From Candidatus Krumholzibacteriia bacterium (GTDB lineage: Bacteria > Krumholzibacteriota > Krumholzibacteriia > JAJRXK01): a stretch of DNA of 64,000 bases. Position 1 is the stretch's first letter; each line of letters starts with the position of its first letter. Positions 24,992 to 48,487 of this stretch are shown here, in pieces. The notes under the pieces are model-generated. The model saw only the letters and a list, made by a program, of their open reading frames with translations. It had not been told where the DNA came from and did no database searches. The stretch covers positions 7,546 through 71,545 of the forward strand of contig JAOZPE010000002.1 in the NCBI GenBank assembly GCA_029932915.1, in the 5' to 3' direction. Both the position numbers and the translations under genes were made by a program.

Positions 24992-25221
24992 GATCCGCTC
25001 CTGGGATGAAGGAGGTTCCCTGTCTGGAAGGGAAACGGCCGAGGCGGTTGCGGTCAGGAAAGCGCGACGAAGATGCCCTGCGGAAAGACATCTCATGCGC
25101 CGGGAAAAGATAATGCCGGTCCATGCCGGTCTCAAGGTCTGGATGTCTCCACCGCATCGAAGGCGGGTCTGCCGCGGTCCGGCGCCGGGGAGGGCGGATG
25201 GAGGATCGGCAATGGGCGACT

Positions 25222-27558
25222 TCAGTTGAGGACGGGTAATCCCCAGCGATCGCGGAGGATCCAGACCAGGGCGGCCTGTGTCTTGGCGAAATCGAAAGCC
25301 AGGGGATGGAAACCCCAGATGAAGTCCTCACTCCCCTGACGGGGTTTCGTCGACGAGTAGGTGGTGATGGCCAGCCCGATGGGGACCTGGTCGAGAACGC
25401 TGCGCTCATATCCCAGTGGTCGGCATTCGGTGGCCGGATCATCGATGAAGGGTTCACCCGTTCGGGGATCGATCTCGTCCCGGGCCGCCCGCAGTGCAAA
25501 CATCGTCTTCTGACAGGGCCGGAGGGAGATGGTCACCGGTCGGCAGGAGACATTGCGGTTGTAGAACTCCTCGTAGTCGAACTTGTACAGCGGGTTGTTC
25601 TCGAGCCGGTCCTTCGATGGAGGAAGATCCTCGAGGACTCCCGATGAGCTGGGGTAGGAACGGCGGAACGCCTCGGGAACGACGGCGGTGATGAGCCGAT
25701 CGCACTGGGCGGTGCGTTTGGGAACCTGTTGTTCACACGCAACCGCTCCCATGGCGGGACGGATGACGTCCATGGCCTCCAGGCACCATGCATTCATGGG
25801 CCAGTCGTAGTAGGACACGTCGTCCTGGGAATAGATGACGGGATAGCTCGATATCGGGTCGGCGATGGCCCCATGCATGACGTACGGCCCGGTCATCAGG
25901 ACGTTTCCCGTCTTCTTCATGTAGAGCTGCATCCAATTGTAGGTGGGGCGATCGAGGGGAAAGATCCGTGCCCGCAGCGCGGAATCCGTCTTTCCTCCCT
26001 TGGTGAACCAGATGATGCTCTTGTACATGCTGATGGTCTCGAAGGTACAACGTTCGGGTTCGGTGTTGACCTTCAGGATGTCCACTTTCGCGTTCCAGTC
26101 CTCGACCCTACCTTCCAGATGGGCGGTCCAGGTGGACAGCCACATTCTCTGCAAGGCCAACTGGCTCGAAGTGTTCTGCCAGCCCCAGTCGTCGATCAGC
26201 AGAAGATTCCTCTGTTGTCGAGGACGGGGAATCGGGACCACGCTGAGATTGTACGTGCCGCGGGTGATGGCCCCGGAGTTGTCGCGTACCTGCACGACGA
26301 AGACGTGATCGCCACCTCGAAACGAGCGGCGTTCGATGGACCGCCATTGGAGCCCCCAACCCACGGACCAGCCCGGGTCGTCCTCGTCGTTGACGTCCTG
26401 AACGTCCCAGCCGTAGCGATAGGATTGGATGATTCCGCCATAGCGCGCAGCGTCCGCCGACCACTGGAACTCGATGGGTTGCTCGGCGATGACCCTGCTG
26501 GAGACGACAGCGTGCTGGCTGACGAAGGTCCGGCTTCCCAGATAGTGATCGGTGACGGTCAGGGAAGGGTACTTGCCCGAAGTGGTGCGCATGTGGCGTA
26601 CGTTCACGTTCCAGTCGAAGGTCGGGGTCACCGCGCCGGAGCGGTCGCGGGCCTGGACGGCGAAAAGCAGACGGCGGTCGATGTCGAAGAGGGGGAGGGT
26701 CACGATCCTGCCGCTGTCGTTGGGGGCGTCGTAGGCGATCCATCGACTCCACGCCTCGTCGGGCAAGAGCGCGATGGGATTCAACTCCGTATAGTCGGGC
26801 TGATTGAGGCATTCGTTGTCATCGAGATGGATCAGCTCGTCCAGTGGAGGGGGAAGTTCGCCGAGATCCAACAGGACATACCGCACGGCATCGGGTCGAC
26901 CCAGCGGATCGTCTGGATCGTTGACGGTCCAACCGAAGGTGAGCTTCCGGGTGGAGGACAGACAGGTCGTGGTGCTCGCCCGTGTCGGGTAGTCGATGAC
27001 GACCTTCGGCGCGATGGTCGTTGCGGTGAAGCTCTCGTGGGCCGGACTGGGATCGCGGGCGCCTTGATCATCGATGGCTCGGACGAAGAAGGTATGGGTC
27101 TGCCACCATCGGTAGGTGCCGTCCGATTGGTCGGGATCGTCGACGTCGTCGGGGAAGGAATCGAGGTCGGCGGAGACCACGAAGGTGGAATCGTAGGCGG
27201 TCGTCCGATTCCATGGCAGAGCGAGGGTGTCCTCGCGGTCGACGATTCCGTCGGGACCGTTGTCACTGATGCGCCACTCGAACGCCTCCACCGTTCCGTC
27301 GGGGTCGCTGCCCGCCCAGAAGAAGCTCACCTGGAAGGAGGCCGCATCCAGGTTGGGCGGGGCGATGGAAATGGACGTGTCCGGCGGGAGATTGGCGGCG
27401 GTGTCACCCTCGATTCCTTCACTCCAGCCACATCCCGCCAGCGACGATCCGAGGGCCAGCGCCAGGATCCAGGCATCCGGGATCGCCTGTGCGAGACCGG
27501 AGAGGAAACCTCTGGGGAGGACTCCCGTAGTTCGAGGGTGATCGCGGTGGGGAGTCAT
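25222..27558 (-). CDS. large lipoprotein (about 779 aa) with repeated Ig/FN3-like modules and an uncharacterised C-terminal domain
   Basis: ATG 27558. Signal peptide plus lipobox WILALALGSSLAGCG. Repeated F.W...DPDG...YRY-type modules. Confidence 0.5.
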   Translation of the reverse strand: MTPHRDHPRTTGVLPRGFLSGLAQAIPDAWILALALGSSLAGCGWSEGIEGDTAANLPPDTSISIAPPNLDAASFQVSFFWAGSDPDGTVEAFEWRISDNGPDGIVDREDTLALPWNRTTAYDSTFVVSADLDSFPDDVDDPDQSDGTYRWWQTHTFFVRAIDDQGARDPSPAHESFTATTIAPKVVIDYPTRASTTTCLSSTRKLTFGWTVNDPDDPLGRPDAVRYVLLDLGELPPPLDELIHLDDNECLNQPDYTELNPIALLPDEAWSRWIAYDAPNDSGRIVTLPLFDIDRRLLFAVQARDRSGAVTPTFDWNVNVRHMRTTSGKYPSLTVTDHYLGSRTFVSQHAVVSSRVIAEQPIEFQWSADAARYGGIIQSYRYGWDVQDVNDEDDPGWSVGWGLQWRSIERRSFRGGDHVFVVQVRDNSGAITRGTYNLSVVPIPRPRQQRNLLLIDDWGWQNTSSQLALQRMWLSTWTAHLEGRVEDWNAKVDILKVNTEPERCTFETISMYKSIIWFTKGGKTDSALRARIFPLDRPTYNWMQLYMKKTGNVLMTGPYVMHGAIADPISSYPVIYSQDDVSYYDWPMNAWCLEAMDVIRPAMGAVACEQQVPKRTAQCDRLITAVVPEAFRRSYPSSSGVLEDLPPSKDRLENNPLYKFDYEEFYNRNVSCRPVTISLRPCQKTMFALRAARDEIDPRTGEPFIDDPATECRPLGYERSVLDQVPIGLAITTYSSTKPRQGSEDFIWGFHPLAFDFAKTQAALVWILRDRWGLPVLN

Positions 27559-27757
27559 GGTCCGGTGTCCGCTGCCTTTGAGGTCGGTCTCGTCCGTACG
27601 AGTGGATACGGCCGGACCGCTCAGGGGAATCTGGCCCGAAGGGCTGGACTTCATCACTGGAGAATACGATCTTGAAGGCCGAAGAAACAGGCCTCGTCCG
27701 AAATCTCCGGTCTTTTTCAGCAGATGGGCCCCAGGGGTGTTTCAAGGGTACTCTCCC

Positions 27758-30478
27758 ATGTCCAAGGCATCCAGGATCGGGCCGATCGCCGGCCTGTGGA
27801 TCCTGTGCGCATGGATGGCGCTGTCGGCGCCTCGGGCCGAGGCGCTTCCTCCCTCTGGAGACACCGAGAACGCTCCACGATGGGACAAGAACGCCCACGG
27901 TGTCTTCGTCCTCGATGGTTCCTTCGTACACAACATCGGTGAACTCCAGTTGAACGTCACCAACTGGGGACTCATCGGGAGCCTTCCCGGTTCCCGAGCC
28001 AGCTACAGCGATGCTCCTTCGGCCATGTGGCCCGCCGGCAGCGGGGTCGACTACCTCTACGGAGCGGGTCTCTGGGTGGGGGCCGTCATCAACGGGGTGC
28101 CCCTGGTGAGTACGGGGTATCCGCAGACGGAACTGCTTCCGTCGAACCGCACCCTGGACACGATCTACCGGATGGTGGAAGGAGAACCGCACGGACTGCG
28201 TTATCCCAACGGCGACGGAGACGACGACGGTGACGGAAGCGTCGACGAGGATCCGAAGGACGGTCGCGACAACGACTCCGACGGCCAGATCGATGAGGAC
28301 TATGCGGCCATCGGCGACCAGCATTTCCGCTGTGTGATGCGCGACGACACGCCTCTGTCCGTGGCCAAGTATCCCGACCACGAGCCCATGGGCCTGTCCA
28401 TCACGCAGGAGACCCATCAGTGGACACGCAATGAACTCGAGGATGTCGTCTTGCTCGACTACACCATCGAGAACGTCGGATCACGGATGCTCGAGGACGT
28501 ATGGGTGGGGCTCTATGTCGATGCCGACATCGGGCCGCGCGAGGGACGGGACGCGACCAGCTTCGACGACATGATCGGATTCCTTCCCCGATACCGGGAG
28601 GATGGGAGCCTCCGTATCGTCTCCACCGAGGACAAGGGCAATGCCTGGTTCAACATGGCCTACATGTACGATTGCGATGGAGACGATCACCTGTCCGAGG
28701 GCTACATCGGCATCCTGTTCATCAGTTTCGATTCGGACATCGGGTTGCAGGGCCGTGGTTCTCCGACCACCACCTACATCTCGAACTTCCAGTGGTTCAC
28801 GGGGCTTCGCTCGTTCGACGAGGGAGGAGAACCGACCAACGACCAGCAGCGCTATACGGCCCTGAGCCGGGGAGTGATCCAGGCCGTGCCGGAGGCGAAG
28901 GACTGCAGGATGGCGAACGACTACCGCTTCCTGGTCAGCGCTCCAGTGGGTTGGCTGCCTCCCCGCGCCAGGTTGAGGGCGCAGATGGCCGTCGTGATGG
29001 GCTCGAGCCTGGAAGACCTGCAGCGCAATGCGGCCGAGGTGATGACGGCCTATTTCGGGCAGTGGTTCGATCGGGACGACGATCCGAGCACCGGGATCCG
29101 TGGCCGCGAGCGCTATGCATGCGAGACCGATGCCGGCGATCCGCCTCCTCCGCCCGCCGCCAATCCCTTGTTCCAGAGGCCGGTGGACTGTCCCAATCCG
29201 AAGTTCTGGTTCCAGCCCAACATCAAGCAGTCGATGCTGAACTACGAGGGTTGTATCTGGATCAACGGCGACTGCCAATTCGAGGAGATGAGGGGACCGG
29301 GGCTCGATTGTTACAGCACCAAGCTCGATTCGGACCGCTACATCGGTTGCACTGGAGTCTTCGGCCGCGAATACAATGTCCTGTGGTACGTCGGTTCCCG
29401 GCCCCCACCTCCGCCCAGGATGCGGATCTGGCCGGCGCATGAGCGGGTCCACATCTTCTGGGACAACTCCAGCGAGAATTCCCTGGACACGGTGTTCCAC
29501 CGACCACAGTTCGAGGGCTACCGCCTGTGGCGCGCCTCGGGTTGGAAGCGGCCGGCGGGCAGTTCGATCCAGACCGGGCCGAACTCGGATCTGTGGTCGG
29601 CCATCGGTGAGTTCGACGTGGTCGATTCCTTCCAGTACAAGAGGGAACTGCCGGCGGGTGGGGTGCACGTCGAGTGGCGTCCACTGGGTCGGAACACCGG
29701 CTTCGAACCGATCGCCTACACCCCGAAGGTCTTGCGGCCGGACTCATGGGAGGCTTCCTACCACCGGGATCTGCGCGTCTTGCTCGATCAGATCTTCATC
29801 GAGCAGAGCTGGGTCGGGCCGCAGACCTCCATCCGCTATTCCGATGTCCAGGGAGTCACCGATCTGGGGCGCCTCTATCCCCGGCTGCGGCGCTGGGAAG
29901 GCAGCTACGACCACCTGGACACCTTGCAGGCCTACCACTTCGGTACCCGCTGGTATGAGTTCGTCGATCGCGGTCTGCACGATGGATTCCACTACTTCCA
30001 CGCGGTGAGCACGACCTCACGGATGCTGGCCCGCCGCGACGGCAAGATCGTGGTGGTGGGCATGGGGCAAGAAGGCGTGCCCCAGAACAACTTCGAGGCG
30101 ACGATGCCCATCTCCCAGGCCCAGACCCCCGAGGAGCGCCGCGACGAAGGGCCACAGATCTACGTGGTGCCCAATCCGGCGACCCGCGTCCGGCTCGAGG
30201 AATTCTCTTCGCTGCATCCCAACGCCACCGACCCGACCGGACTGCACGTGGAGTTCAAGAACCTGCCCCGTGCGCCGGTGGTGGTGAACATCTACACCCT
30301 GGCCGGTGATCTGGTGATCTCCATTCCGCACGATGGCACCGACGGTGACGGGTCGCTCATCTGGAATCTGGTGAGCCGGAACGGTCAGCAGGTGGTCAGC
30401 GGCATCTACCTCTACTCGGTGGAATCGTCCGACTCCAGGTTCTCCACCTTCGTGGGAAGATTCGTACTGGTGCTCTAG
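27758..30478 (+). CDS. large secreted protein (about 907 aa) with acidic Ca-binding-like repeats and a C-terminal FlgD-like Ig domain
   Basis: ATG 27758 with signal peptide MSKASRIGPIAGLWILCAWMALSAPRAEA. DGDDDGDGSVDEDPKDGRDNDSDGQIDED. C-terminus PVVVNIYTLAGDLVISIPHDGTDGDGSLIWNLVSRNGQQVVSGIYLYSVES. Confidence 0.5.
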   Translation: MSKASRIGPIAGLWILCAWMALSAPRAEALPPSGDTENAPRWDKNAHGVFVLDGSFVHNIGELQLNVTNWGLIGSLPGSRASYSDAPSAMWPAGSGVDYLYGAGLWVGAVINGVPLVSTGYPQTELLPSNRTLDTIYRMVEGEPHGLRYPNGDGDDDGDGSVDEDPKDGRDNDSDGQIDEDYAAIGDQHFRCVMRDDTPLSVAKYPDHEPMGLSITQETHQWTRNELEDVVLLDYTIENVGSRMLEDVWVGLYVDADIGPREGRDATSFDDMIGFLPRYREDGSLRIVSTEDKGNAWFNMAYMYDCDGDDHLSEGYIGILFISFDSDIGLQGRGSPTTTYISNFQWFTGLRSFDEGGEPTNDQQRYTALSRGVIQAVPEAKDCRMANDYRFLVSAPVGWLPPRARLRAQMAVVMGSSLEDLQRNAAEVMTAYFGQWFDRDDDPSTGIRGRERYACETDAGDPPPPPAANPLFQRPVDCPNPKFWFQPNIKQSMLNYEGCIWINGDCQFEEMRGPGLDCYSTKLDSDRYIGCTGVFGREYNVLWYVGSRPPPPPRMRIWPAHERVHIFWDNSSENSLDTVFHRPQFEGYRLWRASGWKRPAGSSIQTGPNSDLWSAIGEFDVVDSFQYKRELPAGGVHVEWRPLGRNTGFEPIAYTPKVLRPDSWEASYHRDLRVLLDQIFIEQSWVGPQTSIRYSDVQGVTDLGRLYPRLRRWEGSYDHLDTLQAYHFGTRWYEFVDRGLHDGFHYFHAVSTTSRMLARRDGKIVVVGMGQEGVPQNNFEATMPISQAQTPEERRDEGPQIYVVPNPATRVRLEEFSSLHPNATDPTGLHVEFKNLPRAPVVVNIYTLAGDLVISIPHDGTDGDGSLIWNLVSRNGQQVVSGIYLYSVESSDSRFSTFVGRFVLVL

Positions 30479-31908
30479 CCGGCGTCCGGAGTCCTTCGAG
30501 GGACACGATCTCGAATCGACGTTTCCCTCGGGCTGGCAGAAGGCTCTTCGTGAGGCGGCAAGAGCGGGGTGAGCAGCCGCAGGCGGTGGGCGGCGCTGAG
30601 CGGCCGCTGGTGGAAGGCCGGCTCCTCGAACGCGGCGTGGATCATCGCGCGCCGGAAGCCCACATCGGGAAGGGAGTTCCACGAGGCGATCTCCGCGGGC
30701 GATCCCTCCCGGCCGAGCACCGTCGGGTAGAGCATGGCGATGTACCCGTTCCACCGCTCGGCGTACCCGCCGGCATCCGTTCTCCGGCGGTCTTCGAACC
30801 ATCGCGCCGCGATCTCCCTTCCCCTGAGCACACAAGCTGTCTCATCCGGTGGCAGCCCGTCCCTCCTTCTGCGTGAGCGCTCGAAGTCGGCCGCGACGCG
30901 GGCGTGCAACTCGAGGTCCCATTTCCGGCTGAAGCGCTGCAACTCCTCGGCTGAAGCGCGTCCCTGCAGGATCACCTCGAAGAGCGCACGGGCGTAGGAC
31001 GGCACGTCTCCACCGGCGTCGCGGTAGAAGGAATCGCTGACACAGCGCTGCTCCAGCCGGGCCTCCTCGGCGAAGAGTTCGTCGAGGTGGGCGTGGAAGA
31101 CGTAGCCGGGGCCAGCCCGCAGATGCGCGGTGAGCCGTTCGGGCAGGAGCTGGGTGGTGACGGTGGCCAGCAGCGCCATGCTCAAGGCCACCGCGGGCAG
31201 GCTGGGATGCCGCCGGTACACCCATGCCCACACCAGCATGGCCACGAAGGTGGCTGGCATCAAGGTCGGGTTGGGCCAGTGGACCAGGGCGAAGAGGCCG
31301 GCGGGAACCAGCACCATGCAAACGGGTGAGGCCTGCAGTGTCCGGAGCCGGCTTACCGGAAAGACCAGGACGAATAGAAGCTGCACGAAGGCGTACACCG
31401 GATAGCCGAGCAGGGACCACAGGATCCGCCGTCCCGGGATCGGCTGGGGATGCAGCAGGAAGAGGGCCAGCGCCGGGGCGGCCAGGACGAGGGTGGCCGG
31501 CCCCAGCGAGCGCCACGCCGCGCGGAAGGTCCGGGCCGAACCCCACACCGCCGGCCATCCCGGATCGCGTCGCAGGAGGAACGCGATGGCGCCGATCGCC
31601 GCCGCCGCGAAGGCCAGGTGGACCGGCTGCCGGCGGCCCGAGGGAAACCAGATCCACACCGCCAGAAACAGCAGCGGCAGGATCAGGGTCTCCAGTGCGG
31701 CGAGCCGAGCCGCACGGGAACGCAGGAGCCATCGTCCCCGGCGCAGGATGAGGATCGTGAAGGCCGACAGCGAGAGGACGCCCAGGACGGCCCAGGCGGT
31801 GGCGGAGAGTGGTAGGGGGGTGGCGTACCGCAGATCGACCCGGTGATAGCGCAGAGCCACCCCCAGGAGGAGGGCGAGCCAACTCGTGAGCAGCGGCAGC
31901 CAGGCCAT
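30475..31908 (-). CDS. integral membrane protein (about 8 TM) with a cytoplasmic C-terminal domain; remote CPBP/Abi-like features
   Basis: ATG 31908 (MAWLPLLTSWLALLLGVAL). Has FALVH (an FxxxH-like motif) but lacks the EExxxR catalytic glutamates. Confidence 0.4.
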   Translation of the reverse strand: MAWLPLLTSWLALLLGVALRYHRVDLRYATPLPLSATAWAVLGVLSLSAFTILILRRGRWLLRSRAARLAALETLILPLLFLAVWIWFPSGRRQPVHLAFAAAAIGAIAFLLRRDPGWPAVWGSARTFRAAWRSLGPATLVLAAPALALFLLHPQPIPGRRILWSLLGYPVYAFVQLLFVLVFPVSRLRTLQASPVCMVLVPAGLFALVHWPNPTLMPATFVAMLVWAWVYRRHPSLPAVALSMALLATVTTQLLPERLTAHLRAGPGYVFHAHLDELFAEEARLEQRCVSDSFYRDAGGDVPSYARALFEVILQGRASAEELQRFSRKWDLELHARVAADFERSRRRRDGLPPDETACVLRGREIAARWFEDRRRTDAGGYAERWNGYIAMLYPTVLGREGSPAEIASWNSLPDVGFRRAMIHAAFEEPAFHQRPLSAAHRLRLLTPLLPPHEEPSASPRETSIRDRVPRRTPDAG

Positions 31909-32441
31909 GGGTCCTCGAGAGTGCTCCGGTGAAGGGATTCGGAAACGGGAAAGCGCCGGCAAGGAGTGCCGTTCCGAGAAGAAGGTCCCGCCGCCTCTGC
32001 GCCGGGACCTCCCGGGTTCGATGTGGTGGCGATGGGGCCCCCTTTCCTCGGGGTTTCCCCGTGCGCACATCGTGCGATGGAAGGTCCCCTAAGGGGTCGC
32101 CACCTCCATCAAGCCACTGAAGTCGTTACAGCCCACTGGATCACCTCCTTCGCGGCGCTTGCCGATCGGCGGGCCCCTTCCCGCCCGGTCCGCGGGCCGC
32201 CGTCTGCCCGCCTGGGACCGCCGCGCACGGGGCGCGGTCTCCAGCCGCATCTTCCTCCGCCGGTGGAGGCTTTGTCAACCAGCCCCAGGGAATGGGGCCG
32301 CAAGTCTGCTTCGGACATTGCGTTGGGCGCGGTTTCGGGTACTTTTTGTCCGGACCCGGAGATCTCCGGAGGCGCTCGCCGCCCCTGGGAGGCTTCTCCT
32401 GCCGGAGACCCCGCTCAACGTGTATCGGAACGGAGATTCCA

Positions 32442-33898
<1,457 letters not shown>

Positions 33899-33917
33899 CC
33901 GCACTGTTGCCGCTACC

Positions 33918-33975
33918 ATCCGCAGATCCCACTCTGCGGACGGCTCTTCCCTCATCCCCCTGCTTTCGGGCGGGG
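33918..33975. terminator. two hairpins between convergent ahcY and the glycosyltransferase gene
   Basis: tccgcaga-tcccac-tctgcgga and atccccc-tgctttcgggc-gggggat. Confidence 0.4.
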
Positions 33976-35892
33976 GGATCTCTCATCTTGCGATCCATCG
34001 GCTCGGTCCAGACGGAAGCGGCGGAAGGCCAGGGCCAGCGGTTGACCGGCCGGCCCGCCGGTTCGTTCGAAGTGGAAGCGGACGAGGTGGTGGGTGCCCT
34101 CTTTCAACGGCAGTTCCATCTCCTGCCAGGTCCAGGGCGGATCGCCGGTGGTGAAGGGGCCGAAGTCGACTCCGTCCACGGTGGCCGACCAGGTCTGTGG
34201 TGAAGGAGAGGACTCGGCCACCGTGACCTCGAAGCGCAGGGCCCTGGCCGCAGTGTCCGAATCGATCTCCAGGCTCGCCTGGTGTCCCTGGGCCCAGCGG
34301 CCCCAATCCTCCCGTGGATTCCAGCCTGCACCGAACCAGAACGGACCGTCCATGAGGTGGTAGACGGACAGCACGGCTCCGACCCTGAGGGTGTCGCTGC
34401 GTACCTTCCGGAGCGTCGAATCGGCGTCGACGGTCGCTGCCATCCGGCGCATCCACTCGTTCCAGCCGCGTTCACCGGACCGGAGCAGGGGGCTGTCGTC
34501 GAGCAGCGAGATCACCACGATCTGGCTGCTTCCACCACCGGCCCACCACTGCCGGAGCTCGTCTTCCCGTTCCTGGAGCTGCGTCGCCGGAGGGCTGTGG
34601 TCCGGCGAGAAGGCCGGAGGTGGGGTCTCGATCATCACCGACGAGCTCGTGTGGGCCCTCCGCTGGAGGAGCCGGACCCATCCGGCGCTGAAGCCGTCGA
34701 AGGTTCCCAGGATCAGCGTGGGGGGAGTCTCACGGAGCTGATCCTCGACGAGATGGGAGAGACCGGCCAGCGAAGCCTGGATGGGGGGATACTCCTTCTC
34801 CACGAGTCTGCGGCCGTCGTCCCACCGCAGACCCGCTGCGATCACCACGGCGAGGGTCATCACCGGGAGGAGACGGCGGAAACCCACCACACGTTCCAGG
34901 ACTTCCGCTCCGATACCGGCGGCCAGGAAGAGCGCAACCGCCGGCGCGCTGAGATTGCGGTCGAGGAGATAGGGATGCAGCGCCAACGCCGCGATGGAGG
35001 ACAGGACATAGGCTCCGGCCGCCCAGGTGATGGCACTGCGGCGGAACGATGCCAGAGCGGCAAGGAGCACGACCGGGGCGGCCACGAGCGGACCGGCCGA
35101 GAAACGATGGGCGAAGAGTTGCGCGTACCACGCCAGATGCTGCCACGGGGAAAGTCCGGCCGCATTCGAACGGTTCCTCGCGAACGCGGCGAACATCGAG
35201 AACCCCTGCCTCTGGAGAGCGAGGAACAGCAGGAACAGGGCTGCCACGGCCACGGCCCCTCCCAGCGAGAAGAACAGATTGCGGCGGCCGGGACGGCTGA
35301 GGGCGGCCACCGGAAGAGCCACCAACAAGGGCAGGCCCACGTTGTATTTCGTCAGGAGGGTCGACAGGGCCAACAGAGCGGACAGGACGTACCATCGCAA
35401 CGATTCTTCCCTCACCGCCCGTTCGATGGCGAGCAGGCTTGCCACCAGCAGCAGGATCGCCAGGGGTTCGACCATGAGGGTCGGAGCGAGGCCCATGAGC
35501 AGCGGGGCGCCCAGGAAGAGCGCCGCTGACAGAGGATTCCTTCGGGCCAGCAGGATGACGGTGGCGAGATGGATGAACAGCCCCAGGATCAACCACGAGA
35601 GGGGCGACGAACCGAAGACGGCGAACCAGCTTCCTGTGACCACCGAGTGGAAGGGAGGATAGAGATCGGCGGTGAAGAGCTCCGCGGCGATCCTCACCGG
35701 CGAGCCCGAGCGCAGCGCATCGGCGAAATCCACCGCTCCCAGCTCGTGGTGGGACATGTCCCACAGGAGCGGCGTGTCCGCACTCCAGTGCCAGGGTGCC
35801 AGCCCCACGTAGAGGAGCACCGCTGCCATTGTCAGCAACAGGACCCACGGAAGCCGCCTCTTCGAGAGGCGTGTCGGAGAGACGGAGATCAT
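33952..35892 (-). CDS. PMT/ArnT-like (GT39/GT83-type) polytopic membrane glycosyltransferase with a C-terminal periplasmic domain
   Basis: ATG 35892 (MISVSPTRLSKRRLPWVLLLTMAAVLLYVG). More than 10 TM helices in the N-terminal 400 aa, then a soluble about 250-aa domain. The family call rests on topology and loose motif resemblance only. Confidence 0.4.
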   Translation of the reverse strand: MISVSPTRLSKRRLPWVLLLTMAAVLLYVGLAPWHWSADTPLLWDMSHHELGAVDFADALRSGSPVRIAAELFTADLYPPFHSVVTGSWFAVFGSSPLSWLILGLFIHLATVILLARRNPLSAALFLGAPLLMGLAPTLMVEPLAILLLVASLLAIERAVREESLRWYVLSALLALSTLLTKYNVGLPLLVALPVAALSRPGRRNLFFSLGGAVAVAALFLLFLALQRQGFSMFAAFARNRSNAAGLSPWQHLAWYAQLFAHRFSAGPLVAAPVVLLAALASFRRSAITWAAGAYVLSSIAALALHPYLLDRNLSAPAVALFLAAGIGAEVLERVVGFRRLLPVMTLAVVIAAGLRWDDGRRLVEKEYPPIQASLAGLSHLVEDQLRETPPTLILGTFDGFSAGWVRLLQRRAHTSSSVMIETPPPAFSPDHSPPATQLQEREDELRQWWAGGGSSQIVVISLLDDSPLLRSGERGWNEWMRRMAATVDADSTLRKVRSDTLRVGAVLSVYHLMDGPFWFGAGWNPREDWGRWAQGHQASLEIDSDTAARALRFEVTVAESSPSPQTWSATVDGVDFGPFTTGDPPWTWQEMELPLKEGTHHLVRFHFERTGGPAGQPLALAFRRFRLDRADGSQDERSPRPKAGG

Positions 35893-35912
35893 CTTCCGTC
35901 CTCCACTTCCGC

Positions 35913-36707
35913 TCAGGATTGCATCAGCGAGAAACGACACATCTCGTTGCGGTCGACACTCTCCAGGCGCAGGTAGTAGAGCCCGTTGGGCAAGGTCTCG
36001 CCCTCGCCGTCACGTGCATTCCATCGCACTTCGTGGCGCCCGGCACGCAGCACCTTGACCGGCTTCAGCGGAAGATCGTCGTCCTTGGGCTCGAGCAGCT
36101 TCAGGACCAGCTCGTGGACCCCCGGTTCCATGGTGGCGTGCAGCAACTCGCCGCGGAACTTCTTCTGATCGTCGTAGATGCTCACCGTCACCGTCTGCGT
36201 CCGGGGAAGGACGAAGCGGAAGGTGATGCGCTTCTTCTGGATCTCCGGGAAGCGGTAGACCGGCGTGGTACCGTCGACCGCGCTGGCGACGTTTCCCTTG
36301 AAGAAGACCCAGGTGGTGTCGTTGGCGCTCGTCCAGCTCCACTGGGTATCGAAGTAGCCGCCGACGGTCTCGACCCGGTCGGGCTCGCCCTTCAGCAGTT
36401 TCACCTGTTCGGCGGTCAAGCCCGGGGTGAGGCGGCCGTAGTAGATGGCCTGGTACTGCTCGGCGGGCAGGGCCGGATGGGCCTGCAGATACTCGAGCCG
36501 GTCGCTGCGCCTCGCTCCGTCGGGCATGTTCTCCAGAGGCGGCAGTGAGCTTCCACAGGCTCCCAGGAGCAGAAGGAGGACCACGGTGCTGATCCACAGG
36601 ATGGCGTTTCTCCAGAAGGCCGCCGTTCCCTTCCATGCGCGGCGGATCGCTTCGGGGGGAAGGATGGAGAGCAGAAGCGTCGAGCTCGAAGGGCGGGGGG
36701 CGGTCAT
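35913..36707 (-). CDS. secreted or lipo-protein with a C-terminal FlgD-like Ig domain
   Basis: ATG 36707 with AGGAGG 6 nt upstream. Signal plus lipobox VVLLLLLGACGSS. C-terminus VLRAGRHEVRWNARDGEGETLPNGLYYLRLESV. The gene lies 21 nt upstream of the glycosyltransferase gene on the same strand. Confidence 0.5.
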   Translation of the reverse strand: MTAPRPSSSTLLLSILPPEAIRRAWKGTAAFWRNAILWISTVVLLLLLGACGSSLPPLENMPDGARRSDRLEYLQAHPALPAEQYQAIYYGRLTPGLTAEQVKLLKGEPDRVETVGGYFDTQWSWTSANDTTWVFFKGNVASAVDGTTPVYRFPEIQKKRITFRFVLPRTQTVTVSIYDDQKKFRGELLHATMEPGVHELVLKLLEPKDDDLPLKPVKVLRAGRHEVRWNARDGEGETLPNGLYYLRLESVDRNEMCRFSLMQS

Positions 36708-36849
36708 GATCATCCTCCTGAGGGGTCCATCGATCCGGGCGCAGTGGAGTCTCGCACCATGGGGCCGCGCGCTCAAGCCTCCGGCGCGTCTTCCTTCTTC
36801 CGCAGCATCATGGAGGCAGCATCACGGAGCGGCCGCTGCGGCTGGGTGC

Positions 36850-37680
36850 TCAGTCTTCCGGTGCGTCTTGCCGATGCTGCATCTCCTGGAAGACGCGGCC
36901 GTCGTCCAGACGAACGGCGGTGAGCTGGCCTCCCCACACGCAGGCGCTGTCCAGGCACCATACGTCGTCCCGCAGCATCAGCCCGAGCATGGCCCAGTGG
37001 CCGAAGATCACCCGGTGGCTGCGCCAGCGCGCATCGGCCGCCTCGAACCAGGGGAGGGCGCCGGGGGGAATCTCGTCCTTGCCCTTCACGAAGCCCTCGA
37101 CCATCTCCCCCCGCTGGTCGATCAGACGCAGCAGGGTGGCACCGTGGAGGAAGAGAACCTCCTCCGGCGGAAGGGAATCGTCCGCCGGATCGGCACTGCC
37201 CGCCCTGCGGCCGAGCCGCCACGATGCCTCCAGCAGTGCGCGGGCTCCGTCTCCCTGCAAGCGCCGCTGACAGCGGGCGGCCAGTTCCTGCGCCTCGGAA
37301 ATGCTCCACTGCGGCAACAGACCGGCGTGGACCAGGGCGAAGTGCTCGTGGACGAGGAGGAGGGGCCGCCGGCGGACCCATTCGAGCAGTTCCGCTCCGT
37401 CGGGCGCATCGAGGATCGCTCGGATGCTCTCGCGCCGTTTCACGTCCTGCAGCCTGAGACCGTCGGCGAGGAGATGGATCTCATGGTTGCCCAACACCCA
37501 CTCGATGTGGTCTTCCCCCTGGCGGGCCCATCGCAGCACTTCCCGGCCGAAGCGTCCGCGGCCCACCAGGTCACCGGTGAGCAGCAGGCGGTCGCGCGAG
37601 GGCGCGAAGCCGATGCGCTGGAGCAGACCCTGCAGGGTGTGCCAGCAACCGTGGATGTCGCCGATCGCGTAGGTGGCCAT
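36850..37680 (-). CDS. apaH: bis(5'-nucleosyl)-tetraphosphatase (symmetrical)
   Basis: ATG 37680. MATYAIGDIHGCWHTLQGLL, GDLVGRG, GNHE metallophosphatase motifs, collinear with E. coli ApaH. Confidence 0.85.
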   Translation of the reverse strand: MATYAIGDIHGCWHTLQGLLQRIGFAPSRDRLLLTGDLVGRGRFGREVLRWARQGEDHIEWVLGNHEIHLLADGLRLQDVKRRESIRAILDAPDGAELLEWVRRRPLLLVHEHFALVHAGLLPQWSISEAQELAARCQRRLQGDGARALLEASWRLGRRAGSADPADDSLPPEEVLFLHGATLLRLIDQRGEMVEGFVKGKDEIPPGALPWFEAADARWRSHRVIFGHWAMLGLMLRDDVWCLDSACVWGGQLTAVRLDDGRVFQEMQHRQDAPED

Positions 37681-37888
37681 GGGCGGCAGCTTGGGCTCTC
37701 CGGGGCCGGCGATCAAGGGTGGATCCACCGGCGTGCGGGCAAGGAAGGCCTTGGGTTTTTCGGGGGATTCATTAGGATGTGGACGGAGTTGTCCGGCCGC
37801 TGCGGGGAAGCAAGGTTTCCTGCCGGCACCGTTTCGTTCGGGTTCTCGCTCCTGCGGAGCGAGGCGCGCGTTCTCCAGGAGGCTGTCC

Positions 37889-38596
37889 ATGCGTCGCATC
37901 GTCCCCCTTGTCGCCCTGTCGTCCCTTCTCCTGGGTGGGGTCCTGCTGGCCGGCTGCGGCAGCAAGAACGAGGATACCCACGCCACCGCCGATCAGAGTC
38001 AGGAGACTTCGGCGAAGGAGAATCCCACCCCCTTGCCTCCGGTGAGCGGGAACGAGGAACTGCCCGCCGGCCATCCGCCGATCGAAGGCATGGCACCCAC
38101 CGGGGAGGAATTGGATTCTCCCACCGTCATCGCCGGCGTCTCCTACACGGTCCCGGCCGAGTGGGTGGACGTGGGTCCGTCGGGGATGCGGAAGGCACAG
38201 TTCCAGATGCCCCCGCAGGGAAGCGACACGGCAGCGGCCGAGATGGCGGTCTTCTATTTCGGAGCGAGCAACGGCGGTGGAGTCGAAGCCAATATCGAAC
38301 GGTGGGTCGCCCAGATGAGCCAGCCGGACGGAAGCAGTTCGGCTGACCATGCCACGCGCGAGGATCTGGTGGTGGACGGAATGCCCGTTCACATCGTCAC
38401 CGTCGACGGCACCTACCTTTCGGGGAACATGGGCGGCAACCCCAGCCCTCCCCGGGAGGGATACCGTATGGTGGGCGCCATCGTCGAGGGGCCGCAGGGC
38501 AGCGTCTTCTTCAAGCTTGTCGGTCCGGAGGAGACGGCCAAGGCCATGGAAGCGGGTCTGCGTGATCTGGTGAAGAGCTTCAAGAAGGTCGACTGA
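37889..38596 (+). CDS. hypothetical lipoprotein (235 aa)
   Basis: CCAGGAGG RBS, ATG 37889. MRRIVPLVALSSLLLGGVLLAGCGS lipobox. Confidence 0.5.
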   Translation: MRRIVPLVALSSLLLGGVLLAGCGSKNEDTHATADQSQETSAKENPTPLPPVSGNEELPAGHPPIEGMAPTGEELDSPTVIAGVSYTVPAEWVDVGPSGMRKAQFQMPPQGSDTAAAEMAVFYFGASNGGGVEANIERWVAQMSQPDGSSSADHATREDLVVDGMPVHIVTVDGTYLSGNMGGNPSPPREGYRMVGAIVEGPQGSVFFKLVGPEETAKAMEAGLRDLVKSFKKVD

Positions 38597-38649
38597 ACGC
38601 TTCGATTGCAGACTTCCGACCCTGCTGGACCTTGGATGGAGGCCCATTG

Positions 38650-40383
38650 ATGAAATCCGTATTCCGGCCGGTGTTTCTCCTTCTGGCCGTCGTGTTCCTG
38701 TGTTCCACCGCCGCCCATGCCCAGGTCTCCTCTCCCGCGGCGGAGGAGACTTCCGCCACCCTCGATGAACAGACCCCAGCTGCGGCGAACACCACCGGCC
38801 TGCGCAGGCGGATCGACGACGATGTGGCCGCCCTGCACCGCTACGAGAAGCAGTTGGTGCATGCGAGCGGGGAGGACAGCCTCGTGCTGCGCCGTCAGAT
38901 CGCGAAGCATCAGCTGTCGGTGGTGGAGACCCTCCATCAGCTCGTCGACTTCCTGGTCAAGTCCGAGAAGAAGAACCCCCAGCCCGAGTTGCGCCGGGAT
39001 GTGGAGCGTACCTTCACCAGGGTGACGCCGCTTCTTCGGCCCTATGTGGATACCCTGCGCCGGGAGATCGACGAGCTGCGCGCCCGTCGCCCGTCCACTC
39101 CGGTGAAGGATCGTCTCCAGCTCGAGGATGAGATCGAGAGTCGAACCGAGTTCCTCGACAAGGTCTACCGCCTCTACAGCGAGCATCTGCTCAAGGGCCA
39201 GGCCCTCGGACTGGACATGTCCGAGGAGATCCGCCGTTTCAAGGAGTCGCTCCAGACCAGGGCCGACGAACTCTCCGGCCGTCTCGACCTCGCCATCGCC
39301 CGTGGAAACGAACTGAGCCTCCGTCACAAGGCCGATCCGTCGAACTCGGATACGCCGATCCTGATCATCGCGACCAAGAGGAGTGCCGACACCAATATAG
39401 AGAGCCTGCAGAACACCATCGATCTGATGGAGAAGTGGAAGCTGCCCAACAAGGTCTACCGGACCCAGCTGGTGGCGACGACCCACGACATCAGTTCGGG
39501 GATCTTCAATGTGAACGTGGCGGGCAATCTGTTCAGCCGGTGGATGAAGAGCATCACCACCTGGTTCTCGCACAATGGGGCGAAGATCGCGGTCAAGATC
39601 CTGCTGTTCGCGATCATCCTCCTCGCCTCCCGGATGCTCGCGCAAGTGGTCCGAAGGGGCCTCGACCGCGCTCTGCGATCGTCGAAGGTGAGGATCACCG
39701 AACTGCTGCGGCGGATGATCGTCAACACCACCTACAACATCCTGATGCTCATCGGAACCCTGATCGCGCTGGCGCAGTTCGGGATCAGCCTGGGGCCGAT
39801 CATGGCCGGCCTGGGTGTGGCCGGCTTCATCATCGGTTTCGCGCTGCAGGATACCCTGGCGAACTTCGCATCGGGCATGATGATCCTGTTCTACCGGCCG
39901 TATGATGTCGGAGACGTGGTGGAGATCGCCGGCGTCTTCGGCAAGGTCGACAAGATGAGCCTTGTGTCGACGAGCATCCTCACCTTCGACCATCAGACCA
40001 TGGTCGTGCCCAACAACAAGATCTGGGGCGACGTCATCAAGAACGTGACCGATCAGAAGATCCGCCGTGTCGACCTCGTCTTCGGGATCTCCTACAGTGA
40101 TGACATCGAGAAGGCGGAGAAGGTGCTGGCGGAGATCCTGCAGCAGCACGAGAAGGTCCTGGACAATCCCGCGCCCATGGTGCGCCTGCACGAACTCAAC
40201 GACTCGTCGGTCGACTTCGTGGTCCGGCCCTGGGTGAAGACCGATGACTACTGGGATGTCTACTGGGACATCACCCGCGCGGTGAAGCTGCGCTTCGACG
40301 AGGAGGGGATCTCCATCCCCTTCCCCCAGCAGGACGTGCACCTGTACGGAGAACCCCCTACAGACCCGGGAGATCGTTCATGA
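38650..40383 (+). CDS. mechanosensitive ion channel, MscS family (with a long N-terminal periplasmic coiled-coil domain)
   Basis: Signal peptide. MscS core PYDVGDVVEIAGVFGKVDKMSLVSTSILTFDHQTMVVPNNKIWGDVIKN. Confidence 0.85.
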   Translation: MKSVFRPVFLLLAVVFLCSTAAHAQVSSPAAEETSATLDEQTPAAANTTGLRRRIDDDVAALHRYEKQLVHASGEDSLVLRRQIAKHQLSVVETLHQLVDFLVKSEKKNPQPELRRDVERTFTRVTPLLRPYVDTLRREIDELRARRPSTPVKDRLQLEDEIESRTEFLDKVYRLYSEHLLKGQALGLDMSEEIRRFKESLQTRADELSGRLDLAIARGNELSLRHKADPSNSDTPILIIATKRSADTNIESLQNTIDLMEKWKLPNKVYRTQLVATTHDISSGIFNVNVAGNLFSRWMKSITTWFSHNGAKIAVKILLFAIILLASRMLAQVVRRGLDRALRSSKVRITELLRRMIVNTTYNILMLIGTLIALAQFGISLGPIMAGLGVAGFIIGFALQDTLANFASGMMILFYRPYDVGDVVEIAGVFGKVDKMSLVSTSILTFDHQTMVVPNNKIWGDVIKNVTDQKIRRVDLVFGISYSDDIEKAEKVLAEILQQHEKVLDNPAPMVRLHELNDSSVDFVVRPWVKTDDYWDVYWDITRAVKLRFDEEGISIPFPQQDVHLYGEPPTDPGDRS

Positions 40384-40787
40384 ACACCGTCTTCGTCAAC
40401 GGCGTGCAATACGAGTACGCCACCCGCTGGCAGAGATTCCTCGGTCAGTTCCTGGACGGCCTCATCTATACCGCCATCGTCTTCATTCCGGCGATGATCC
40501 TGGGCGCGTTCCTGCGCGAGAACCTCGTGGTGGTCATCGCCATGCTTCCCGCGCTGTGGTACCTCCTTTTCCAGGACGGCATGCCCGGAGGACAGAGTCT
40601 GGGCAAGAAGGGGGTCGACACCCGGGTCATCGACGCCAGGACCGGGCGGCCCTGCAGCTATGGCCAGTCCTTCCTCCGCAATCTGTCGTTGATCGTGCTC
40701 AGTTGGATCGACTGGATCTTCATCTTCGGCGAGAAGCACCAGCGTCTGGGCGACAAGCTCGCGGGCACGGTGGTGGTGAAGGCCTGA
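40380..40787 (+). CDS. RDD family membrane protein
   Basis: 135 aa with two or three TM helices and conserved Arg/Asp positions. The start overlaps the mscS stop (ATGA). Confidence 0.55.
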   Translation: MNTVFVNGVQYEYATRWQRFLGQFLDGLIYTAIVFIPAMILGAFLRENLVVVIAMLPALWYLLFQDGMPGGQSLGKKGVDTRVIDARTGRPCSYGQSFLRNLSLIVLSWIDWIFIFGEKHQRLGDKLAGTVVVKA

Positions 40788-40868
40788 ACCGGTGGGGCCG
40801 CGGGCCTTCATCAGCTGTTCGGGCCGTCACCATCCGTCGATCCTCAACCCTGCCGGGAGGCGATTCCG

Positions 40869-41915
40869 ATGAGCCGGAGCACCCGCGCCATCCGTATCGA
40901 GAAACTCGGTCCACCGGAGGTCCTGGTGGAGCGCGAAGTTCCCCTGGCCGATCCCGGTCCGGGCCAACTGCAGTTGCGGGTGGAGGCCGCCGGAGTGAAC
41001 TTCGCCGATCTGATCATGCGCCTGGGCATGTACCGGACCGTCCCACCGCGTCCCTTCGCCCCGGGCTTCGAGGTGGCCGGAGTCATCGAGCGCCTCGGCC
41101 CGGGCACCGAGGATCGCTGGAAGGTGGGCACGCCGGTGGTGGCCCTGATGCGCTACGGCGGCTACTCCCGCGAGGTCATCGTCGAGGCGGCCAATACCTT
41201 CCCCCGTCTGTCCCAGTGGGATGCGATCACTGCCGCGGCCATCCCGGTGGTCTTCCTCACCGCCTGGGCCGCCCTCTTCGAGGGAGCCCACGCCCGCTCC
41301 GGGCAGACCGCTCTGGTGACCAACGCCGGGGGTGGGGTGGGGACGGCAGCAGTGCAGTTGGCGGTGGCCGAGGGTCTGCGCGTCTACGGCACGGCGGGAA
41401 CGCCGGTCAAGCGCAGCTTCGTGGTCGACGAACTGGGTGCTGTCGACTGTTTCGATTCACGCGGCGACTGGTATACACCCATGAAGGATGCCGTCGGCGA
41501 GCGCGGTCTGGACATCGCGCTGGACTCGATGGGTGGAGATGACACCAAGCGTCTGGCCTCGCTCCTGGCGCCGCTGGGACATCTGGCCTTCTACGGAATG
41601 AGCAACGCGATCACCTCGAAGTGGTGGCACTGGCCGAAGGCCGCCTGGACCTGGCTGCGCATGCCCCGTTTTCATCCCATGTCGCTCATGGAGCCGTGCA
41701 TCGGCGTCTCCGGGGTGCATCTGTTGCACCTGGCCTCGCGGGAGGACCGGCTGCGCGAGGCCTTCAACCAGATCCTTCAGCGCTTCGCCGAGGGGAAGCT
41801 GCGCGCGGTGGTCGATTCCACCTTCCCGTTGACCGCGGCCGGTGCCGCCGCGGCGCATCGCCGCTTGCACGATCGTCAAAACCTGGGCAAGGTGGTCCTG
41901 GTGCGGGAGGATTGA
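40869..41915 (+). CDS. NADPH:quinone oxidoreductase / zinc-type alcohol dehydrogenase (MDR) family
   Basis: GVNFADL, nucleotide-binding [15 protein letters not shown], and a typical MDR length of 348 aa. Confidence 0.8.
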
Positions 41916-41986
41916 CCCGGTCCTTTCGAGGCCGAAGTGCATTTCATCCCGATTCCGGCGCTCGCACGAGTGCAAAGGAGGCGACA

Positions 41987-42676
41987 ATGCCCATGAGCAG
42001 GAAACTGGGAGCTGAGTTCATCGGCACCTTCTGGCTGGTACTGGGCGGATGTGGCAGCGCGGTTCTCGCGGCGGCCTTCCCCCAGTTGGGAATCGGATTC
42101 GCCGGGGTGGCCCTGGCCTTCGGCCTGACCGTCCTGACCATGGTGTACGCCGTCGGCCCCATCTCGGGCGCCCACCTCAACCCGGCCGTCTCGGTGGGGT
42201 TGTGGGCGGGTGGACGTTTCCCGGGCCGGGAGCTGCTGCCCTATGTGGTGGTGCAGGTGGTCGGTGCCATCGCGGCCGCCGCGGTTCTCTATGTGATCGC
42301 AACGGGCAAGGCAGGCTTCGAACTGGGTGGCTTCGCGGCCAACGGATACGGTGCACACTCTCCGGGCGGCTATTCGCTGAGAGCCGCGCTGGTGACCGAG
42401 ATCGTCATGACCTTCATGTTCCTCGTCATCATCCTGGGAGCCACGCATCGGCGCGCGCCGGCAGGTTTCGCCGGTATCGCCATCGGTCTGGGGCTGACCC
42501 TGATCCACCTCATCAGCATTCCGGTGACCAACACCTCGGTGAACCCGGCTCGCAGCACCGGCCAGGCCATCTTCGTCGGAGACTGGGCGCTGTCGCAGTT
42601 GTGGCTGTTCTGGCTCGCGCCCATCGTCGGCGCGGTGATCGCCGGAATCGTCTTCCGGTGGTTGGAGAGCGAGTAG
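41987..42676 (+). CDS. aqpZ: aquaporin Z
   Basis: AAGGAGG RBS. Two NPA boxes ([13 protein letters not shown]). 229 aa. Confidence 0.9.
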
Positions 42677-42709
42677 GATCGTCGAAGTGTCTCCAGGCAG
42701 GATGGGATC

Positions 42710-43468
42710 ATGAGCGATGAGCGTTTCCGGCCCGGGGAGGATGCCTCCTCCCCGGACGAGCCCCTCTTCTCCGAGGAACTTCTCCGGCGGCGGGAGGAAC
42801 TGCGCCGGCGCTTCCGGGACAGGATCGAAGCGACGCCGGCCCTGTCCGACGACGATCCCATCGGCAGCGGGCCGCCGAACCGCCACGGAATGCCCCGTCT
42901 TCCGGTGGGGCAGACGGAGACCGCCAAGTGGCCGGTGCTCGATCTGGGCGTGCAGCCGGAGATCCCGCTGGAGCGCTGGGAACTCGTGGTCGACGGGGCC
43001 TGCCGCAATCCCCTGAAGCTGGGCTGGGAAGACTTCCTGCGCATCGGCGCGGTCGAGGACACCAGCGATTTCCACTGCGTGACTTCCTGGTCGAAGATGG
43101 ATTTGAGGTGGAAGGGGGTGCGGGTGGTCGACGTGCTCGCCCTGGCCGAGGTGGAGACGGAGGCCACACACCTGCTCTGCCACGCCTACGATCGCTACAC
43201 CACGAACGTGCCCCTGGAAGAGGCGATCAAGGACGATGTACTGCTGGTCTTCGAGGTCGACGGCCAACCCCTGCCGCGCGAGCACGGCGGTCCGGTGCGG
43301 ATGATCACTCCCCAGCTCTACGCCTGGAAGGGCGCGAAGTGGATCCGCCGGATCGAGCTGTTGACCGAGGACCATCCCGGATTCTGGGAGCGGCGGGGCT
43401 ACTCGAACACCGCCCATCCCTGGCGCAACGACCGCTACTCCACCGGTGAGGACGAGTTCGGATTCTAG
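42710..43468 (+). CDS. molybdopterin-dependent oxidoreductase, sulfite-oxidase-like (YedY/MsrP-type catalytic domain)
   Basis: Mo-ligand cysteine context DFHCVTSWSKMDLRWKGV and a single Oxidored_molyb-like domain of 252 aa. Confidence 0.7.
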   Translation: MSDERFRPGEDASSPDEPLFSEELLRRREELRRRFRDRIEATPALSDDDPIGSGPPNRHGMPRLPVGQTETAKWPVLDLGVQPEIPLERWELVVDGACRNPLKLGWEDFLRIGAVEDTSDFHCVTSWSKMDLRWKGVRVVDVLALAEVETEATHLLCHAYDRYTTNVPLEEAIKDDVLLVFEVDGQPLPREHGGPVRMITPQLYAWKGAKWIRRIELLTEDHPGFWERRGYSNTAHPWRNDRYSTGEDEFGF

Positions 43469-43547
43469 CCGAGGATCCTCTCGTCAAGGGGCGCCGAGAC
43501 CCTGGCCGAGATGCTCCGCCGAGGCCGCGTGACCACGGCGCTCACCC

Positions 43548-48470: not shown

Positions 48471-48487
48471 TCCAGAGGAGATCTGTG

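Follow-up and report, generated by a model that had tools for sequence, protein, structure and literature searches.

Two adjoining genes in the stretch of DNA analysed here (64,000 nucleotides, the window) raise the question of whether a Krumholzibacteriota membrane glycosyltransferase is encoded together with its own dedicated protein substrate, as the first-pass annotation had proposed. Both genes lie on the minus strand: a lipoprotein gene (264 aa, 35913..36707), whose product combines a lipobox and an unassigned N-domain with an Ig domain of the FlgD type at its C-terminus, is followed by a gene for a GT-C (ArnT/PMT_2-clan) membrane glycosyltransferase (646 aa, 33952..35892). Both are real, as claimed: their codon-position GC is of the coding type (GC3 of 0.79 and 0.83), and identical 646-aa and 264-aa proteins are among the gene calls of other public contigs from this organism. 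The tight same-strand spacing with the lipoprotein gene upstream was described correctly, except that the gap is 20 nt and not 21, since the lipoprotein gene stops with TGA at 35915..35913 and the GT-C gene starts with ATG at 35892. The spacer (35893..35912, minus strand), read directly from the sequence, carries a GGAGGA ribosome-binding site 7 nt ahead of the GT-C ATG and no terminator-like site. Upstream of the lipoprotein gene and co-directional with it is apaH (symmetrical Ap4A hydrolase, 36850..37680, minus strand; NF001204 score 247 bits, cut-off 176). On the other side ahcY (S-adenosylhomocysteine hydrolase, 32441..33898, plus strand) is convergent with the GT-C gene and forms the far edge of what turns out to be a variable slot; a CAAX protease gene and MscS complete the surroundings. 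A promoter/terminator scan of the operon gave nothing informative, and Rfam and tRNA scans across the whole window returned no matches. The 20-nt gap and the Shine-Dalgarno sequence suggest translational and transcriptional coupling of the lipoprotein and GT-C genes, so the proposed co-transcription is plausible, and we infer that in this genome a single transcript probably covers apaH together with the lipoprotein and GT-C genes.

The membrane protein has the predicted overall topology of a polytopic N-terminus with a periplasmic C-terminal domain: about 10–12 hydrophobic helices extend up to residue ~387 and are followed by a soluble region of ~260 aa. Three parts can be distinguished, all on the minus strand. 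The transmembrane catalytic module (residues 1–387, 34732..35892) is defined by invariant or near-invariant columns and by the ArnT alignment. The periplasmic alpha/beta domain (residues 388–513, 34354..34731), delimited by secondary structure, is conserved family-wide and contains the conserved motifs GTFNEFS.GW and WN.WK. The CBM-like C-terminal beta-sandwich (residues 514–630, 34003..34353), found only in some family members, resembles CBM35, CE2 and CBM51 modules. The predicted structure is a polytopic membrane module with a GT-C fold, and it is well predicted. Conserved in this module are D45, D76-x-Y-P-P-x-H82, E142, K182, H306 and R312 (checked codon positions 35758..35760 for D45, 35467..35469 for E142 and 35347..35349 for K182), with D45, P79, E142, H306 and R312 reaching at least 90% conservation in an alignment of 113 sequences. 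D45 sits within W-D-x-x-H in loop 1, the first periplasmic loop after TM1.

The only Pfam match of the protein is PMT_2 (PF13231; 20.1 bits, E = 8e-4), which does not reach the gathering cut-off of 26.1, and NCBIfam gave no match. Relatives found with the family profile do exceed the PMT_2 cut-off (P0056 with 44.2 and P0132 with 75.4 bits), and 38 of 75 distant relatives match PMT_2 at E ≤ 1e-3; judged from these scores, the PMT_2 link of the window protein is one of homology at the clan level only. PDB sequence searches with the window protein alone or with a 9-sequence profile returned nothing useful, and the 113-sequence profile found ArnT as its only strong sequence match (E = 4.4e-8). In this alignment D45 pairs with ArnT D55 and K182 with K203, while E142 falls one column away from D158; in ArnT these three are catalytic or acceptor-binding residues (PMC7801869). 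The first-pass description as a PMT_2/ArnT-like glycosyltransferase is thereby borne out, and the protein is, on sequence grounds, a GT-C glycosyltransferase of the ArnT/PMT_2 clan with predicted activity. One could still argue from the sub-threshold PMT_2 score and the missing NCBIfam match that it is catalytically dead or has a non-enzymatic role in the membrane; however, the loop-1 Asp, E142, K182, H306 and R312 are conserved in more than 100 diverged relatives and the GT-C fold is well predicted, and we regard this as highly improbable. Within the known clan, the gene falls in a sequence-divergent branch that lacks annotation: the family comprises 667 cluster representatives, and no curated family is assigned to the closest members checked. 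With a curated model of the branch, envelope glycan modification could be annotated better in Krumholzibacteriota and in uncultured lineages related to it.

The similarity to ArnT (GT83, the lipid A 4-amino-4-deoxy-L-arabinose transferase; PDB 5ezm/5f15) does not extend to identity with it. The two proteins share 14–16% identity, E84/K85 of the ArnT motif EKPPFH are replaced by L/Y in the window motif DLYPPFH, the window protein has the additional CBM-like beta-sandwich, and no arn genes are found nearby. Nor is the similarity informative on the acceptor class, since the eukaryotic protein O-mannosyltransferases TMTC1-4 are likewise closest to ArnT (PMC7801869). The HMM search of 33952..35892 that had been suggested at first pass yielded PMT_2 below its cut-off, but neither the ArnT equivalog (NF009784) nor, among Pfam matches at E ≤ 1, GT39 (PF02366) or DUF2723 (PF11028, the TMEM260-type O-mannosyltransferase). 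In contrast to the GT39 PMT enzymes of fungi and Actinobacteria, which have a D-E pair in loop 1 and a C-terminal four-helix PMT_4TMC module, the window protein has D45-M46 and ends in the soluble alpha/beta domain and beta-sandwich; the MIR and TPR domains of protein O-mannosyltransferases (GT39 PMT; TMTC1-4, of the PMT_2 type) are also missing, and no Pmt chain in the PDB is reached by the 113-sequence profile at E ≤ 1. The absence of PF02366/DUF2723, of the D-E pair and of the C-terminal 4-TM module rules out a GT39 protein O-mannosyltransferase.

Is the lipoprotein then a substrate of an enzyme of another type? The initial description of a secreted lipoprotein with an FlgD-like Ig C-terminus is confirmed: the lipobox L-G-A-C51 (Cys51 at 36555..36557) is conserved in orthologs, the N-domain is alpha+beta, and the FlgD-type Ig domain (residues ~159–264, 35916..36233) scores 28.5 bits with FlgD_ig (PF13860), above the gathering cut-off of 27, and has a 22-aa insertion but no NPFNP motif. 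The AF2 model has a pLDDT of 66, and its top Foldseek matches, to the FlgD hook cap, are weak (E = 2e-3). The idea of a BamE-like N-domain was dropped, as it is unsupported by Pfam and by a PDB profile search. The protein is clade-specific, and a metagenome scan with its profile recovered only two short loci. It contains a single, invariant D-T-T tripeptide, its sole instance of D(S/T)X, the O-glycosylation motif of Bacteroidota (PMC10897501). However, by a rough estimate made by hand, chance alone would give about one D(S/T)X in ~210 residues, and Ser and Thr make up only 11% of the mature protein.

The co-occurrence of the two genes was surveyed on short contigs (including L033 and L034). 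In three of five informative lineages with the lipoprotein the GT-C gene adjoins it, running in the same direction in the window and L034 and convergently in L033; of the other two lineages, one (L022) has an AAA_14/DUF4143 gene in its place and the other (L025) has no GT-C gene there. At L034 the genes are co-directional with a 39-nt gap, and the GT-C fragment is 58% identical to P0009 and 43% to the window enzyme. At L033 an intact GT-C gene is convergent with a lipoprotein gene that is 5'-truncated and has no lipobox. At L022, where the lipoprotein is 80% and AhcY 91% identical to those of the window, the AAA_14/DUF4143 gene fills the slot with ahcY directly after it, and the GT-C gene is found on another contig; at L025 ahcY (77% identical) directly follows the lipoprotein gene with no GT-C gene between. 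At 16 other distinct loci of the GT-C family there is not a single lipoprotein homolog. In L022, L025, L032 and L031 the lipoprotein gene is preceded by a Metallophos gene, and apaH is its most constant neighbour, steadier than the GT-C gene. Conservation of the pair is partial and confined to a single narrow clade, in which the orientation varies; the adjacency that had been predicted to recur does so in three of five lineages, but not in L022 and L025 nor at the 16 other GT-C loci.

Adjacency in three of five lineages could reflect a functional link. The strongest version of such a link, in which a protein O-glycosyl (mannosyl) transferase acts on the co-transcribed lipoprotein as its dedicated substrate, would fit the co-directional genes with their short, Shine-Dalgarno-bearing gap, the repeated adjacency, the D-T-T tripeptide and the existence of true protein O-mannosyltransferases in the GT-C/PMT clan (PMC7801869). 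We nevertheless consider it quite unlikely, given the missing PMT features, the missing pair in L022, whose genome keeps a GT-C gene elsewhere, and in L025, the convergent arrangement in L033, the 16 loci without the lipoprotein and the chance level of the motif; the dedicated transferase-substrate operon of the first-pass annotation is not upheld. Were it true, PMT-type protein O-glycosylation would be extended to the FCB superphylum and tied to T9SS-type domains. A weaker version, in which the lipoprotein is an accessory or partner of the enzyme, for example a periplasmic adaptor presenting the acceptor or stabilising the enzyme, would be in line with the tight spacing and with adjacency in the narrow lipoprotein-bearing clade, in one case (L034) to a differently related GT-C. 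It is unlikely too: the far wider GT-C family works without the lipoprotein, the genes are apart in the L022 genome, the truncated lipoprotein of L033 sits beside an intact GT-C gene, and apaH is the steadier companion. As part of a single explanation that also includes an envelope acceptor, and which we hold to be moderately probable as a whole, the adjacency is a matter of local synteny, the slot that separates the lipoprotein gene from ahcY being variable, and does not mark a dedicated enzyme-substrate module. The GT-C gene is best seen as a so far unannotated representative of a known class of enzymes and not as part of a new glycosylation system.

The C-terminal module had also been read as marking many other secreted proteins of the window as possible further substrates. 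Their number was overstated, as a custom HMM run over all window ORFs finds the module in only two further proteins (8796..11003, minus strand, and 27557..30478, plus strand). In the lineage the module passes TIGR04183, the T9SS type A sorting domain (cut-off 23 bits), in proteins of L017 (28.2 bits), L004 (27.7) and L022 (42.6), and this module of the relatives aligns with all three window modules. A sorting-type domain of the T9SS type A kind, as the module is in the relatives, accounts for its recurrence without glycosylation; the module is to be read as a secretion tag or an Ig domain and no pointer to glycosylation. The lipoprotein itself has no match to TIGR04183/Por_Secre_tail at E ≤ 1, and differs from T9SS type A cargo in lacking the NPFNP lead-in, in having the 22-aa insertion and in carrying a lipobox instead of an ordinary signal peptide, so its own FlgD_ig domain may have a structural role as an Ig domain and not act as a secretion tag. 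A C-terminal FlgD_ig match in these phyla is best read as a secretion/sorting domain, and neither flagella nor glycosylation should be deduced from it.

Eukaryotic TMTC and TMEM260 enzymes act on beta-sandwich domains and mannosylate Ig-like domains. By comparison with them, the GT-C protein might be a general O-glycosyltransferase for the Ig-like/T9SS-type C-terminal domains (CTDs) of many secreted proteins; CTD glycosylation of T9SS cargo is reported in Cytophaga hutchinsonii (PMC11611037), and CTD-bearing genes directly adjoin same-strand GT-C homologs in L004, L017 and the window. However, besides the window this adjacency is seen at 2 of 16 loci, about the chance level with CTDs in ~3–5% of genes (estimated from counts), and the adjoining proteins are unrelated except for the tag. 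CTD-bearing proteins are also no denser near GT-C genes (five in 176 kb) than in the window (three in 64 kb), and we find this general role highly improbable. A combined view, in which the two proteins work together as a module in a small Krumholzibacteriota clade and the enzyme, a bacterial counterpart of TMTC/TMEM260, O-glycosylates beta-sandwich domains of the FlgD/T9SS type, the Ig-domain lipoprotein being its first client, is very unlikely.

The explanation that we favour, with the moderate confidence given above, is that of an inner-membrane ArnT/PMT_2-clan GT-C whose acceptor is an envelope glycan or lipid rather than a protein, with the lipoprotein next to it by local synteny. By analogy with this clan, we infer that its sugar donor would be a polyprenyl-phosphate carrier on the periplasmic side of the membrane and that D45 in loop 1, along with E142 and K182 as a pair, would serve in the transfer to an acceptor. 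The periplasmic alpha/beta domain would bind this acceptor together with the CBM-like beta-sandwich. The favoured functional analogy is to the GT-C component of three-component systems, which combine a polyprenyl-phosphate glycosyltransferase, a flippase and a GT-C (PMC11127046): the window protein would resemble it as a stand-alone bacterial GT-C and would likewise add a single sugar to an extracytoplasmic glycan. Unlike in those systems, a gene for a GT2 polyprenyl-phosphate synthase or GtrA-type flippase is not found beside the window GT-C gene, nor consistently in relatives, and all-vs-all BLAST of flanking ORFs together with Pfam revealed no recurrent neighbour family. The acceptor is more likely to be a glycan or lipid of the envelope (LPS or some other polysaccharide) than a protein, although the indicators are weak; we lean this way because of the CBM-like C-terminal beta-sandwich and because the GT-C relative P0062 is fused to Wzy_C, the O-antigen ligase/polymerase family.

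The membrane protein (646 aa, 33952..35892, minus strand) and the lipoprotein encoded upstream of it (264 aa, 35913..36707, minus strand) both have codon-position GC of the coding type (GC3 of 0.79 and 0.83), and gene calls on further public contigs from this organism include identical copies of both proteins. Since the lipoprotein gene stops at TGA 35915..35913 and the membrane-protein gene starts at ATG 35892, the spacer is 20 nt and not 21 nt as in the first-pass annotation. GGAGGA lies 7 nt upstream of this ATG, AGGAGG is also found upstream of the lipoprotein ATG (36707) and a scan revealed no terminator-like site between the genes, so that their co-transcription, as originally suggested, is plausible here. 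Downstream, the 53-nt convergent gap between the stops of the membrane-protein gene and ahcY (33899..33951) contains a 6-bp GC-rich hairpin (CCGCAG…CTGCGG) with no T-run, which may serve as a terminator common to both genes.

The only Pfam match of the membrane protein is to PMT_2, sub-threshold at 20.1 bits (cut-off 26.1); Pfam PMT and DUF2723 and the NCBIfam models gave no match. A word-indexed search found 9 relatives; with an exhaustive profile search the family grew to 667 cluster representatives (E<=1e-3), including 57 with E<=1e-30. The relatives come mostly from MAGs of Candidatus Krumholzibacteriota (FCB superphylum), which makes this lineage the very probable source of the window. 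Since 38 of 75 more distant relatives match PMT_2 (best E 7.6e-21), and 7 and 4 of the same 75 match Glyco_transf_22 and PMT, respectively, the family belongs, on sequence grounds, to the GT-C/PMT clan, as a divergent branch. With a 113-sequence profile ArnT was matched at E 4.4e-8; the sole further match, a weak one, was ALG9, and Pmt chains were absent. The enzyme class proposed at first is therefore right at the level of the clan, while a PMT-type protein O-mannosyltransferase is left unsupported by the lack of PMT, DUF2723 and Pmt-chain matches.

The AlphaFold2 model of the membrane protein (pLDDT 81, pTM 0.74) has helices up to residue ~387, then an alpha/beta domain that ends at ~513 and a beta-sandwich that ends at ~630, in agreement with hydropathy. 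In the 113-sequence profile alignment D45 and K182 correspond to ArnT D55 and K203, whereas E142 is one column apart from ArnT D158. In ArnT, D55 is the catalytic or acceptor-binding aspartate and D158/K203 form the acceptor-binding salt-bridge pair (PMC7801869). Conservation of D45, P79, E142, H306 and R312 in the GT-C family reaches 90% or more, which makes an active enzyme the most likely reading. One profile-search relative (P0062, 905 aa) has an N-terminal Wzy_C (O-antigen ligase/polymerase) domain fused to the GT-C module, a hint that part of the family, at least, acts on polysaccharide. At another locus (L014) a DUF6311 membrane protein carrying an ILEI domain (8203..10353) is encoded downstream of the GT-C homolog (6001..7857), in the same orientation.

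Seen from the lipoprotein gene, conservation of the pair can be judged in five lineages (the window, L022, L025, L034 and L033), as the contigs of L031 and L032, with apaH upstream and lipoproteins 51% and 60% identical to that of the window, end short of the slot between the lipoprotein gene and ahcY. The sister genome, L022 (lipoprotein 80%, ahcY 91% identical), keeps the block of ~235-aa lipoprotein, apaH, lipoprotein, slot, ahcY, CAAX protease and 973-aa protein, with an AAA_14/DUF4143 gene and not GT-C in the slot; this MAG carries its GT-C (P0009, 33-37% identical) on a different contig. In L025 (lipoprotein 54% identical) ahcY directly follows the lipoprotein gene. In L034 (75%) a co-directional ORF 39 nt downstream encodes a GT-C N-terminus, and in L033, a contig of 2x coverage, the lipoprotein gene (79%) is 5'-truncated against a PilZ gene and the GT-C, which shares 54% identity with the enzyme of the window, is convergent on the opposite strand. 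The two genes are thus adjacent in three of the five lineages, within a narrow clade only, and co-directional in two. Flanking genes of the block are 61-91% identical as compared to at most 54% for GT-C, which is its least stable and most diverged element.

Between syntenic flanks, the slot contains GT-C in the window (33899..35912), the AAA_14/DUF4143 ATPase in L022 (7754..9150) and an empty 85 nt in L025 (2917..3000). The L034 GT-C (999..1283) is nearer to P0009 (58%) than to the enzymes of the window (43%) and L033 (1034..2896; range 43-54%), with lipoproteins 75-84% identical; the L034 fragment being only 95 aa long, this may reflect either very fast GT-C evolution or two paralogs in the same slot.

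From the GT-C side, none of the 16 distinct loci has a lipoprotein homolog, and no neighbour family is common to them beyond sub-lineage synteny. The lipoprotein as a dedicated substrate of the GT-C is unsupported by any of the tests made, and this model appears very improbable. Because of the adjacency in those three lineages we keep a functional link as a possibility, although a partnership of the two proteins seems unlikely. We prefer a reading in which an ArnT-like enzyme at the periplasmic face would modify an envelope glycan or lipid, its gene sitting in a variable slot beside a clade-specific lipoprotein whose steadier partner is apaH. The GT-C is an unannotated representative of a known kind of enzyme in an uncultured phylum. 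Four further lineages also keep the apaH gene (36850..37680, minus) and the divergent ~235-aa lipoprotein gene (37889..38596, plus) next to that of the FlgD-domain lipoprotein; the functional reason for pairing an Ap4A hydrolase with a lipoprotein is not obvious.

The lipoprotein itself matches FlgD_ig at 28.5 bits (cut-off 27), and its lipobox cysteine and nearly entire mature sequence are conserved in 7 ortholog clusters (51-80% identity). Its model is mediocre (pLDDT 66), the first fold matches of the beta-sandwich being FlgD hook-cap structures (E 2e-3), and Pfam and profile searches assigned no family to the N-terminal alpha+beta domain. Copies of the C-terminal module (CTD) in relatives score 28.2, 27.7 and 42.6 bits (cut-off 23) with TIGR04183, the curated model of the T9SS type A sorting domain, and Por_Secre_tail is matched as well; T9SS C-terminal domains are sometimes given the FlgD_ig superfamily label (PMC11611037). 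The lipoprotein does not match TIGR04183 and has an atypical copy of the module, with a 22-residue insertion, without the NPFNP lead-in and downstream of a lipobox.

Many other secreted proteins had been proposed to share the module and to be possible further substrates, which no test supports; a custom HMM made from 6 C-terminal modules finds just two other carriers in the 64-kb window. One (8796..11003, minus) combines a CehA/McbA-family metallohydrolase (79.4 bits, cut-off 80), an fn3-like domain and the FlgD_ig/T9SS-type module. The other is the 973-aa secreted protein (27557..30478, plus; 86.5% identical in the sister genome), with an Asp-rich 'DGDDDGDGSVDEDPKDGRDNDSDGQIDED' stretch and the T9SS-type module as its only Pfam domain. 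The surroundings of GT-C genes contain 5 CTD-bearing genes in 176 kb, versus these 3 in 64 kb; at 2 of the 16 loci one immediately adjoins the GT-C, which by our own estimate is about the chance expectation. Bacteroidota O-glycosylate both T9SS cargo and lipoproteins, with D(S/T)X as the modified motif (PMC10897501), and CTD glycosylation was reported in Cytophaga hutchinsonii (PMC11611037). The lipoprotein contains one invariant D-T-T, which we estimate to be about as expected by chance.

Elsewhere, no tRNA genes were found in the whole 64 kb (1..64000), nor any Rfam family at the gathering threshold, including in the ~350-nt leader upstream of ahcY. At E<=0.01 Pfam matches nothing in two large minus-strand ORFs, 25222..27741 (839 aa) and 43548..45557 (669 aa); codon GC is coding-type for the former and borderline for the latter (GC3 0.74, unflagged). 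The abutting plus-strand genes 59665..61254 and 61255..62925 encode secreted proteins of ~530-550 aa, one with a weak transglutaminase-core match, and since their C-terminal ends are alike (…WYRIETLSAP and …WYRLETVGGN) they are probably tandem paralogs.
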